This document shows, one piece after another, positions 42,889 to 44,845 of a stretch of DNA of 44,899 nt. The stretch lies in the sequence record NC_012223.2; one strand, written 5' to 3'. Positions within the stretch are counted from its first letter, which is position 1; each line of letters opens with the position of its first letter. This DNA is from Escherichia phage SSL-2009a. A model generated the notes under the pieces. That model was not told the DNA's origin, did no database searches, and saw only the letters and a list, made by a program, of their open reading frames with translations. The translations under genes were made by a program, and so were the position numbers.

Positions 42889-43290
42889 ATGTTAGATTCG
42901 ATCTTGCGACGTAAAGAACGCATTATCAAGACACTGCCCGCAGTGCAGAACCCAGAAGCGCGCCGCATCCTGGCGGGGGATATGAATGTATCAGGCGTCT
43001 TTGACAAGGCCGTGCCTGAAGGGACGCCGGTGGCTAGCGCTACCGTCACCATCACGCCAGCTACCGCCGCAGTTGGTGAGACAGCCGCCGCGACTGTTGC
43101 CATCCTGCCATCCGGAGCGACCAACAAGACCGGGTCGTGGGTGTCGGCTAACCCTAACCGCGCCTCAATCAATCCGACTACCGGAGAAATCACAGCGAAA
43201 GCAGCGGGTAACGTCCGCATCGTTTGGGTGGCGTCCGACGGTAGCGGGGTGCAGGCTGACGCAGGCTTCACAGTAACGGCAGCCGCATAA
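42889..43290 (+). CDS. Ig-like (Big_2-type) domain protein
   Basis: 133 aa; C-terminal region rich in T/A/V/G (ATVTITPATAAVGETAAATVAILPSGATNKTG...GNVRIVWVASDG); SD GAGGTGA. Confidence 0.45.
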   Translation: MLDSILRRKERIIKTLPAVQNPEARRILAGDMNVSGVFDKAVPEGTPVASATVTITPATAAVGETAAATVAILPSGATNKTGSWVSANPNRASINPTTGEITAKAAGNVRIVWVASDGSGVQADAGFTVTAAA

Positions 43291-43297
43291 ACCAACA

Positions 43298-43324
43298 AGC
43301 CCGGATAATACCGGGCTTTTTATT
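43298..43324 (+). terminator. rho-independent terminator after Ig-like gene
   Basis: GCCCGG-ataata-CCGGGC followed by TTTTTATT. Confidence 0.6.
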
Positions 43325-43331
43325 GCTTGAC

Positions 43332-43369
43332 TTGCAACCAACATAGGGGCCATACTGCAACCAACCAAT
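43332..43369. promoter_or_regulatory. two TGCAACCAA motif copies (reverse orientation)
   Basis: ttgcaaccaa 43332-43341 and tgcaaccaaccaat 43356-43369, just upstream of the micro-ORF SD. Confidence 0.4.
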
Positions 43370-43385
43370 AAGAGGAGTAATCAAG

Positions 43386-43475
43386 ATGACACGTAACGAT
43401 ATTTGGGTATTAGCAATCTGGACCACCGCGGCTTTTATTGGCATGGTTATTTGCGAGGTGATGTATGGCTTTTAA
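43386..43475 (+). CDS. hydrophobic micro-protein (29 aa, single predicted TM helix)
   Basis: MTRNDIWVLAIWTTAAFIGMVICEVMYGF; strong SD AGAGGAG 8 nt upstream of ATG 43386; found by manual translation. Confidence 0.4.
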   Translation: MTRNDIWVLAIWTTAAFIGMVICEVMYGF

Positions 43476-43654
43476 ACCGCGGCGCGATTCCCGACCTTTG
43501 GCAGACAGACCACGGGGTGCACAAATGGAGGCGTCATTCTTCCAGGGGTTATCATTCCTCACCAAAAAAGAGCAGGGGAAAGTAATGGGTGAATTCCGAC
43601 GCGTATTGGCGGAATTCAAGCAGCAAGACGCAGAATAGTGCCTCGCCGCCATAC

Positions 43655-43680
43655 GGACCGTGGTATATTGTCCACGGTCC
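43655..43680. promoter_or_regulatory. perfect 9-bp inverted repeat GGACCGTGG-tatattgt-CCACGGTCC upstream of the phosphoesterase gene
   Basis: Seen directly; loop contains TATATT; 22 nt upstream of ATG 43703. Confidence 0.45.
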
Positions 43681-43702
43681 ACTAATCAGGAATTAATTAA
43701 AT

Positions 43703-44845
43703 ATGCACCCGCAAACTAAAATTACCGATGAGCAATTGATCGCCGAAATTCAGGCAGGGACTACGGTTAAAGAGATTGCGAAGAAATACGGCATTGCACT
43801 TCGTAACGTCTACATGCGCAAAGCCCGCCTGTCGAAAAAGGGGATTGGTCATGGCAATGACGCCGTGATCCGTAAGCGCGTTGCCGATGGCTTTGGGGTT
43901 AAGCGCGTATCGGCCCTGGTGCGCGGCAATGGCGAAGAGGTCATGTCGTGGGTCATCACTGAGCAGGACAAGGAGCGCCAACTCGAAGCCATGCGCGCTG
44001 TTGTCGAGGGTATGAACAGCGAAATCACACCGGCAGCGCCCGTAAACGCCACGCCAGTCCCGATTCAGGCGCTCGACTTGCTCAACCTGTACACAGTGTC
44101 CGACTTCCACCTGGGTATGCTGGCGTGGGGCGAGGAGACTGGCGAAGACTGGGATATGGCGATTGCTGAAGACCTGTTCTACCGCTGGTTTGTCGAAGCC
44201 TTCGCCCGCGCACCGGACGCAGGCACTGCCGTTATCAATATCCTCGGTGATATGGCCCACTTTGATAGCCTCGACGCCGTCACACCAGCAAGCGGTCACG
44301 TACTGGACGCCGACACACGATACCAGAAGTTGGTCCGCTATATGATTCGCATGGTGCGCAACGTCGTAGACCTGGCGCTGCAAAAACACCACAAAGTCAA
44401 ACTGCTAATCGTCCAGGGTAATCATGACGAATCGGGTATGATTTGGCTTGCTGAGATGTTCAATACCCTGTATGAGAACGAGCCACGCGTCGATGTGGAC
44501 ACGTCCCCGGACGTCTACAAAATGGTGCAGCACGGTAAGACCACGCTGTTTTTCCATCACGGGCACAAAGCGCGATTCGATGCTATCGAGCAGGTTATGA
44601 TCGCTAAATTCAGACAGGCGTTCGGGTCGAGCGAATACAGCTACGCGCACGTAGGTCATTTGCACCACCAGAAGATTGTCGAGTCTCGCAACATGATTGT
44701 TGAACAGCACCGGACGCTCGCAGCGAAAGACGCCTACGCCAGTCGTGGCGGTTGGATGTCCGGTCGCAGCGCAAACGTCATCACCTACAGCGCCAACTAC
44801 GGCGAAGTAGCGCGCTTAACCATTAGCCCAGAAATGTTGAAGTAA
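43703..44845 (+). CDS. metallophosphoesterase (calcineurin-like) with N-terminal HTH domain
   Basis: 380 aa; N-terminal HTH-like TVKEIAKKYGIALRNVY; C-terminal phosphoesterase motifs GDMAHFD, GNHDE, GHKARFD, GHLHH. Confidence 0.65.
   Translation: MHPQTKITDEQLIAEIQAGTTVKEIAKKYGIALRNVYMRKARLSKKGIGHGNDAVIRKRVADGFGVKRVSALVRGNGEEVMSWVITEQDKERQLEAMRAVVEGMNSEITPAAPVNATPVPIQALDLLNLYTVSDFHLGMLAWGEETGEDWDMAIAEDLFYRWFVEAFARAPDAGTAVINILGDMAHFDSLDAVTPASGHVLDADTRYQKLVRYMIRMVRNVVDLALQKHHKVKLLIVQGNHDESGMIWLAEMFNTLYENEPRVDVDTSPDVYKMVQHGKTTLFFHHGHKARFDAIEQVMIAKFRQAFGSSEYSYAHVGHLHHQKIVESRNMIVEQHRTLAAKDAYASRGGWMSGRSANVITYSANYGEVARLTISPEMLK

Follow-up and report, generated by a model that had tools for sequence, protein, structure and literature searches.

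A transmembrane micro-protein gene of Escherichia phage SSL-2009a as a candidate accessory envelope modulator of dhillonviruses

The right end of the genome of Escherichia phage SSL-2009a (NC_012223.2; the whole stretch of 44,899 nt that was analyzed is referred to here as the window), a virulent, HK578-like siphophage of the genus Dhillonvirus, harbors the mini-gene gp65 (43386..43475, + strand), an open reading frame (ORF) of 29 codons with an ATG start. Its conservation among related phages makes it very probable that gp65 is a real, translated gene for a transmembrane (TM) peptide. The explanation favored here, with a probability of about 0.5, is that gp65 is the product of an accessory module with the pattern of a moron, a peptide with one TM helix that modifies an envelope-level process. 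The chances that it is an accessory envelope-level modulator of some kind are slightly better than even; that its function is specifically superinfection exclusion, as suggested by analogy, is conceivable but doubtful. The initial annotation had presented the ORF as missed by the ORF track, which does not apply to GenBank/RefSeq: an exact-sequence look-up locates it in the public SSL-2009a record (44,899 bp) as AV954_gp65 (YP_008550178.1), a "hypothetical protein". Most related genomes do leave the gene unannotated.

The peptide (MTRNDIWVLAIWTTAAFIGMVICEVMYGF) comprises an M-T-R-N-D N-terminus, a hydrophobic TM core of 18 residues (I6-C23; IWVLAIWTTAAFIGMVIC), and an E-V-M-Y-G-F C-terminus, in line with the single TM segment that had been proposed and is also predicted here. 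The insertion energy of the core, summed over the biological-scale values of Hessa et al. (2005), is -1.4 kcal/mol. Among the 110 ATG-initiated ORFs of 24-40 aa in the six frames of the window, gp65 is the most hydrophobic (KD19 of 2.01; runner-up, 1.67). The near-ideal Shine-Dalgarno (SD) sequence reported for the 29-codon ORF is also present as described (AGAGGAG, 43371-43377, + strand) and is separated from the ATG by an 8-nt spacer (TAATCAAG); 9 of 10 aligned phages have exactly GAGGAG at this site. The SD:anti-SD duplex has a computed energy of -9.5 kcal/mol, and the 5' leader, counted from a predicted start site, is short and computed to be almost without structure. The mini-ORF of most dhillonviruses has 26 codons (MARKDIWVLAIWTTAAFIGMVICELI) and ends 61 nt before the gene of a helix-turn-helix (HTH) and calcineurin-like phosphoesterase (in the window at 43703..44845, + strand; 380 aa; "DNA repair exonuclease", phrog_704). 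The form that is three codons longer is limited to SSL-2009a and a few others (Shigella phage 1b, Oekolampad, Opt212, and two metagenomic contigs).

An ORF of 29 codons is within chance by length, and the 3.4-kb stretch around gp65 is overlapped by 56 ORFs that reach 20 aa or more; its conservation is beyond chance. Among 20 distinct 75-nt alleles of the mini-gene, the variable sites are distributed 7/5/18 over codon positions 1/2/3 (chi-square 9.8, 2 degrees of freedom, p ~0.007). The ratio of nonsynonymous to synonymous substitutions (dN/dS; Nei-Gojobori) is 0.147 in frame, at a proportion of synonymous differences (pS) of 0.35, versus 1.18 and 2.87 when either of the other frames is read. 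Together, the codon-position pattern and the frame-specific dN/dS indicate that the amino acid sequence is under purifying selection and hence that gp65 is a real gene. The replacements are conservative (T/S/A, I/V, L/M, K/N, W/Y), and 15 distinct peptides have 12 residues in common (M1, R3, D5, V8, A10, I11, F17, I18, M20, I22, C23, and E24). Conservation of the ORF and its SD in related genomes, on which the initial annotation had staked its interpretation, is evident: a tblastn search of phage GenBank with the peptide had hits in 109 records, of which 107 covered ≥80% of its length, and the upstream terminator, the -35 and -10 hexamers, the SD, and the ATG are almost invariant in an alignment of 10 phages.

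All 109 records belong to the genus Dhillonvirus, to which the gene is, as far as these searches indicate, restricted. Scans of Pfam, NCBIfam, and PHROGs with the 29-aa and 26-aa forms yielded no family match (in Pfam, none at E ≤ 10). A k-mer/phmmer search of 5.8 billion clustered proteins, for which the peptide was extended to 40 aa by 11 in-frame residues from upstream, retrieved 8 proteins, all from contigs of Dhillonvirus size, and an HMMER profile run exhaustively against 1.84 billion representatives gave only 3 matches, all of them family members. The mini-gene was not found by blastn in 5,426 E. coli genomes, and there is no paralogue within the window; pattern scans of IMG/VR and metagenomes added only a few near-identical loci. 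The 1.9-kb right end of the window has matches in 155 phage records, nearly all of them Escherichia/Shigella dhillonviruses. A record labeled "Acinetobacter phage NJ01" (OQ221563.1; host, A. baumannii) has a typical Dhillonvirus right end with the mini-gene at 93% DNA identity; its host label looks doubtful.

Together with a sigma-70-type promoter and the SD, the mini-gene makes up a self-contained block, which measures 147 nt in the short form. The block is preceded by an intrinsic terminator (43297..43318, + strand) with an 8-bp GC-rich stem followed by TTTATTGCTT, which ends the unit of the lysis cassette and an immunoglobulin (Ig)-domain gene, is kept in all relatives, and is listed as a terminator in the annotations of phages WF5505 and PTXU06. 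The predicted sigma-70-type promoter P1 (43327..43356, + strand) consists of a -35 hexamer (TTGACT, 43327-43332), an 18-nt spacer, and a -10 hexamer (CATACT, 43351-43356); it scores 9/12 in a consensus scan, and both hexamers are near-invariant across the genus. The two upstream copies of the motif TGCAACCAAC that had already been recognized are exact matches to TGCAACCAA(C) on the + strand; one (43333..43342) lies in the P1 spacer directly 3' of the -35 hexamer, and the other (43356..43365) overlaps the last base of the -10 hexamer and the predicted start-site region.

The block is present in ~70% of the dhillonviruses, judging from 109 records with the peptide versus 153 records with a phosphoesterase of ≥90% identity (both counts include GenBank/RefSeq duplicates). 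Among 11 Dhillonvirus loci that were retrieved from IMG/VR via the phosphoesterase, 4 lack the mini-ORF. In loci L042 and L044, the terminator is joined straight to the phosphoesterase leader, with exactly the promoter and the ORF missing, which is the junction type of phages Envy, Sloth, and YD-2008.s. The mini-ORF is absent also from L045, with a different junction, and from L049, which has kept P1; ORF-less loci thus come in at least three architectures. A 201-nt query representing the ORF-less junction matches in one piece in Envy, Sloth, YD-2008.s, and Zumzum and in two pieces spanning ~348 nt in the ORF-bearing phages, which delimits a module of 147 nt. Because its natural absence from viable relatives is so clean, the mini-gene is considered accessory, that is, dispensable and not essential.

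In one feature, the block corresponds to a moron in the sense of Hendrix and Juhala: it forms a 147-nt insertion between genes that are adjacent in relatives. The conserved, consensus-type P1 is a predicted candidate for a promoter of its own. A terminator downstream of the mini-gene was not detected; the inverted repeat at 43655-43680 lacks a U-tract and was not called a terminator. Transcription of the mini-gene probably reads into the phosphoesterase gene, and the mini-gene is, by its layout, structurally moron-like except for the absent downstream terminator.

From the sequence, we infer a mechanism that includes P1 activity, a defined membrane topology, binding rather than pore formation, and an exclusion function. 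P1, with its two copies of TGCAACCAA, and the strong SD would drive the ORF of 26-29 codons as a compact, transcriptionally autonomous unit. The positively charged N-terminus (MxR[K/N]D) and the acidic C-terminus would, according to the positive-inside rule, place the peptide in the cytoplasmic membrane in an N-in/C-out orientation, and its 26 residues would be too short for co-translational targeting, leaving post-translational insertion. Helix-helix packing might involve the invariant face (V8, A10, I11, F17, I18, M20, I22, C23, and E24) together with the patch of small residues at positions 13-16 and G19. The weakest step of the argument is that, instead of forming a large pore, the peptide would act by binding one of the infected cell's membrane proteins. 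As to the outcome, a first guess is that superinfecting siphophages would be kept from delivering their genomes; the next is that the peptide would interfere with a membrane-anchored function of the host or protect from it. A similar design is known from bacterial micro-proteins that regulate larger membrane proteins (KdpF, AcrZ, MgtS, and PmrR) and from type I toxins (TisB, ShoB, and Ibs), all of 19-50 aa, which consist of a single, post-translationally inserted helix and whose conserved small-residue faces likewise suggest helix-helix binding. By contrast, gp65 has no sequence relationship to any of them and is phage-borne, and no antisense RNA signature was found.

The position of gp65 directly upstream of the phosphoesterase weakly favors, by analogy, a role in membrane-level exclusion or host modulation. 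Among 80 loci encoding relatives of the HTH-phosphoesterase, those of the Guernseyvirinae type (phosphoesterase identity, 72-77%) have a small envelope-targeted protein in this slot in 34 of 34 cases. In 22 of the 34 loci, it is a two-TM Imm_superinfect protein of 59-68 aa (PF14373, E = 2e-15; phrog_1039, "immunity to superinfection"), and in the other 12 a signal-peptide protein of ~110 aa (phrog_14165). Cronobacter phage ESP2949-1 (Kyungwonvirus) carries in front of its orthologous phosphoesterase an unannotated 27-aa ORF with a single TM segment (MNCVKSFIGVVLAALITWFFVYIVVMQ), which is kept in five Cronobacter phages and tightly packed, its GTGA overlapping the upstream stop and its TAA lying inside the SD of the next gene. 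It resembles gp65 as a single-TM micro-ORF but differs in its unrelated sequence, its GTG start, and the lack of a promoter of its own; its relatives are too close for a selection test. A "hypothetical" coding sequence of 30 aa upstream of the phosphoesterase in Bas73 was dropped as an analogue, as it is not hydrophobic. The neighborhoods in the Guernseyvirinae-like and Cronobacter phages (slot loci: L036, 647-826; L050-L088; L035, 503-829; L037, 802-885) indicate that the slot repeatedly acquires unrelated envelope effectors rather than containing one conserved gene.

Several phage proteins illustrate what such an effector might do. T4 Imm is a small inner-membrane protein that blocks DNA entry (PMC11436027). 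Like T4 Imm, the Imm_superinfect proteins (PF14373) are small inner-membrane phage proteins, and they occupy the equivalent position in phages resembling Jerseyvirus and Kagunavirus. They differ in their length (59-83 aa), two TM segments, and conserved FxPFLVA...NLxLGW motif, which makes gp65, with its single TM segment, a positional analogue and not a homologue. HK97 gp15 is a moron-encoded small inner-membrane protein that blocks siphophage DNA entry (Cumby et al. 2012, as described in PMC10883804). It shares with gp65, which is likened to it by description, the setting in a coliphage with a long non-contractile tail, a small predicted inner-membrane product inserted between conserved genes, and dispensability for lytic growth; it differs in that HK97 is temperate, gp15 is expressed from the prophage, and exclusion has been demonstrated (PMC10883804), whereas SSL-2009a is virulent. 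It is rather unlikely that the helix of 26-29 aa represents a minimal new membrane effector, the smallest known exclusion factor or inhibitor of a host membrane protein, and marks an unrecognized "envelope-effector slot" common to Dhillonvirus, Guernseyvirinae, and Kyungwonvirus.

Several observations weigh against the explanation favored for gp65. In Sodalis phage SO-1, an internal deletion joins codon 15 to downstream sequence, replacing residues 16 onward, and in PS2/HH3 the stop codon is lost and the ORF extended to 52 aa, so that it overlaps the phosphoesterase start; in those lineages, the function may be weakly constrained or already lost. Dhillonviruses and related small siphophages have been suggested to encode receptor-level exclusion proteins beside the genes for their receptor-binding proteins (PMC8594841), and a second layer of exclusion would therefore not be required. 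The association of the slot with envelope proteins is gone in more distant groups (phosphoesterase identity, <57%), where the neighbors are cytoplasmic proteins. Homology to Imm_superinfect (PF14373) was rejected, as gp65 has no Pfam hit at E ≤ 10 and the hhalign probability is 0.6%. The timing of P1 cannot be read from its motif copies, since TGCAACCAA is found at promoters of both replication and structural genes.

An alternative target would be a membrane-anchored immune system or membrane sensor of the host, with gp65 acting as an anti-defense factor. This would agree with its accessory presence and absence and with its location at a hot-spot for the exchange of unrelated small genes (hot-spot inserts: window, 43465-43638; locus L013, 480-653; locus L009, 391-618), of which the mini-gene is the constant element. 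In SSL-2009a, the neighbor is the accessory ORF gp66 (43465..43638, + strand; 57 aa), which is shared only with the few relatives named above for the longer mini-ORF; WF5505 and KarlBarth have a different, unrelated Cys-rich 57-aa gene joined at the same type of junction. In EK99P-1 and one metagenomic phage (L048), a 228-bp gene (75 aa, phrog_16851) is inserted between SD and mini-ORF; stop and start codons still overlap at the junction with the mini-ORF, which in L048 has also retained a GGAG. Dhillonviruses do carry narrow-range anti-defense or defense-triggering small proteins elsewhere, namely, anti-Tmn and Ksap1 (PMC11846954, PMC11564622), but these are larger, soluble, and encoded at other loci. 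Neither of these two experimentally studied small proteins, Ksap1 (74 aa; gene flanked by those for the methyltransferase and the phosphatase) and anti-Tmn (ORF35), is identical with gp65, whose peptide sequence does not occur in the literature searched. A link of gp65 to a defense system is not known. Across the genus, the peptide also varies much less than arms-race genes usually do; an anti-defense role is improbable.

The size and hydrophobicity of gp65, which recall type I toxins and small holin-like peptides, and its location 96 nt downstream of the lysis/Ig-domain block would suit a membrane-damaging effector, either a depolarizing peptide of the type I toxin kind or a lysis-timing factor (holin helper, antiholin, or pinholin-like) acting with the adjacent lysis cassette. 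Pinholins have at least two TM domains, and class I-III holins have one to three TM domains and a charged C-terminal domain. gp65 has a single 18-residue segment in 26-29 aa, followed by only 3-6 residues, and is separated from the lysis/Ig block by the terminator at 43297-43318 and the predicted P1, which is of a constitutive type. The pinholins and holins represented by S21-68 of phage 21 are likewise small, hydrophobic, and encoded near endolysin genes; they differ in that pinholins have two TM domains and are co-transcribed with the endolysin, whereas gp65 has one, lies behind a terminator with its own predicted promoter, and is dispensable. There is no match to a holin or toxin family and no similarity to the two holins of the phage. 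The lysis set of the genus is complete elsewhere (two holins, endolysin, and i- and o-spanins, with the spanins annotated near the head genes), so that a holin or pinholin and a replacement for a missing spanin were both rejected. The locus does not resemble a type I toxin-antitoxin locus either: the region 43300-43700 contains no promoter-like site on the minus strand that could yield an antisense RNA, and no Rfam family reaches its gathering score, the only hits being sub-threshold matches to leaders caused by the hairpin of the upstream terminator. The initial annotation's suggestion of a pinholin-like factor is thus not sustained by the single TM domain, the separate predicted transcription unit behind the terminator, the lack of a holin-family match, and the absence of the gene from viable relatives, and membrane damage in general is an unlikely function; its other suggestion, a membrane modulator, is plausible.

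The strong initiation signal of the mini-gene might also serve to load ribosomes onto weak downstream genes, with the peptide being incidental. Such a coupling cistron would explain why the SD (GAGGTGAT) and the ATG of gp66 are located inside the mini-gene, the latter in its last codons (ATGGCTTTTAA), why a second, unrelated 57-aa gene uses the same junction in WF5505 and KarlBarth, and why the mini-ORF ends at the TAAT-ATG of the phosphoesterase in SO-1 and overlaps that start in PS2/HH3. The SD of the phosphoesterase, whose start follows the mini-gene at a distance of 227 nt (window) or 61 nt (short form), is indeed weak (-4.3 kcal/mol, compared with -9.5 kcal/mol for the mini-gene). However, it is the amino acid sequence and not the frame alone that is under purifying selection (dN/dS of 0.15, with synonymous sites free), a coupling ORF does not need a hydrophobic helix, and in most genomes the mini-ORF has no downstream partner within the 61 nt before the phosphoesterase. 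Moreover, module-less genomes keep the same phosphoesterase SD and the same TGnTATATT element.

This element belongs to a perfect 9-bp inverted repeat (43655..43680, + strand; GGACCGTGG-TATATTGT-CCACGGTCC), which folds well and contains TGgTATATT at 43661-43669. Across the genus, including the genomes without the mini-gene, TGnTATATTG is invariant and the stem arms are not conserved. The canonical two-hexamer promoter scan does not call this site; it is likely an extended -10 promoter (P2) for the phosphoesterase and not a structural hairpin. If P2 is real, the phosphoesterase is independent of P1 and the mini-ORF, and this would speak against the latter acting purely as a leader or for coupling. 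A leader peptide or attenuator was rejected, given the purifying selection on the peptide, the unconserved downstream stem, and the sub-threshold status of the Rfam leader hits. Translational coupling appears quite improbable, and gp65 seems to be more than a leader ORF and not an effector of lysis. The view that the ORF is no gene and has arisen by chance within conserved regulatory DNA, to which the frequency of ORFs of similar length and the missing annotation in most genomes might point, is hardly credible in view of the codon-position pattern and frame-specific dN/dS, the conserved SD and ATG, a reading frame open in 107 of 109 records, and a hydrophobicity that is extreme among the short ORFs of the window.

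One more class of exclusion factor was considered for the envelope-level modulator, the lipoproteins of the Cor/Llp type. The lipobox consensus is [LVI][ASTVI][GAS]C. In gp65, the sole Cys is preceded by M-V-I, with Ile at position -1, and followed by only 3-6 residues, and the candidate was rejected.

What appears to be new about the already annotated but uncharacterized gp65 is the selection on the peptide, its modular, dispensable nature, and its positional analogy with Imm-type proteins, which is an incremental advance. Micro-proteins of <30 aa are systematically under-annotated in phages, and this mini-gene is missing from the annotation of most of the ~100 genomes that carry it. The phages with the module, without it, or with truncated or extended alleles constitute a natural knockout series. 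Should the peptide block DNA entry or target a host membrane protein, it would provide a very small, easily synthesized probe of siphophage genome delivery and would be relevant to the design of phage cocktails from dhillonviruses; should it have no measurable effect, it would be one more genus-specific ORFan. As one of many small membrane proteins of phages, gp65 would not surprise a phage biologist.

The motif found at P1, [T/C/G]GCAACCAA(T/C), is strongly over-represented in the window, with 13 exact copies of TGCAACCAA versus ~0.3 expected and, when up to one mismatch is allowed, 28 copies versus 11.7±3.7 in shuffled sequences. The copies (6227/6241, 22336, 25185/25206, 27095/27112, 33870/33886, 36805, 39618/39653, 40024/40055, 40564, and 43333/43356) cluster in pairs, which are direct or in one case form a palindrome (TGCAACCAACCTATTGGTTGCA). 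They lie in promoter-like intergenic positions, in front of replication genes as well as structural genes. The sites are syntenic in phage Bas84, where 11 of 19 fall into the intergenic 4.2% of the genome. The motif probably serves a phage regulator as its operator or represents a promoter element specific to the phage, and a candidate regulator is the HTH at the N-terminus of the phosphoesterase, which resembles GerE and sigma-70 region 4.

The terminator tail (43310-43325; ACCGGGCTTTTTATTG) resembles codons 13-18 of the mini-gene (43425-43440; ACCGCGGCTTTTATTG) over 16 nt at 81% identity. The resemblance is probably due to chance; it could also hint at an origin of the ORF from duplicated terminator/promoter DNA. 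The SD region is also complementary to codons 16-19 over 10 nt; this pairing, which is not conserved in relatives, was dismissed.

Among the neighboring genes, gp66 is itself under purifying selection (dN/dS of 0.136; variable sites, 10/8/25 by codon position) and has an SD duplex of -13.3 kcal/mol; its AlphaFold2 (AF2) model, a disordered basic N-terminus and a helical hairpin (pLDDT of 76), is uninformative. The N-terminal HTH of the phosphoesterase has weak matches to GerE, HTH_28, and sigma-70 region 4-like domains, and the protein is conserved in ~2,000 phage records from many siphophage genera. On the upstream side, the mini-gene is preceded by the genes for two holins, an endolysin, and a 133-aa protein with a Big_2-like Ig domain (42889-43290), which is the same in HK578 and Psq-1. 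Many relatives have only a remnant of 53-55 aa ("gp57") at the position of the Ig-domain gene.

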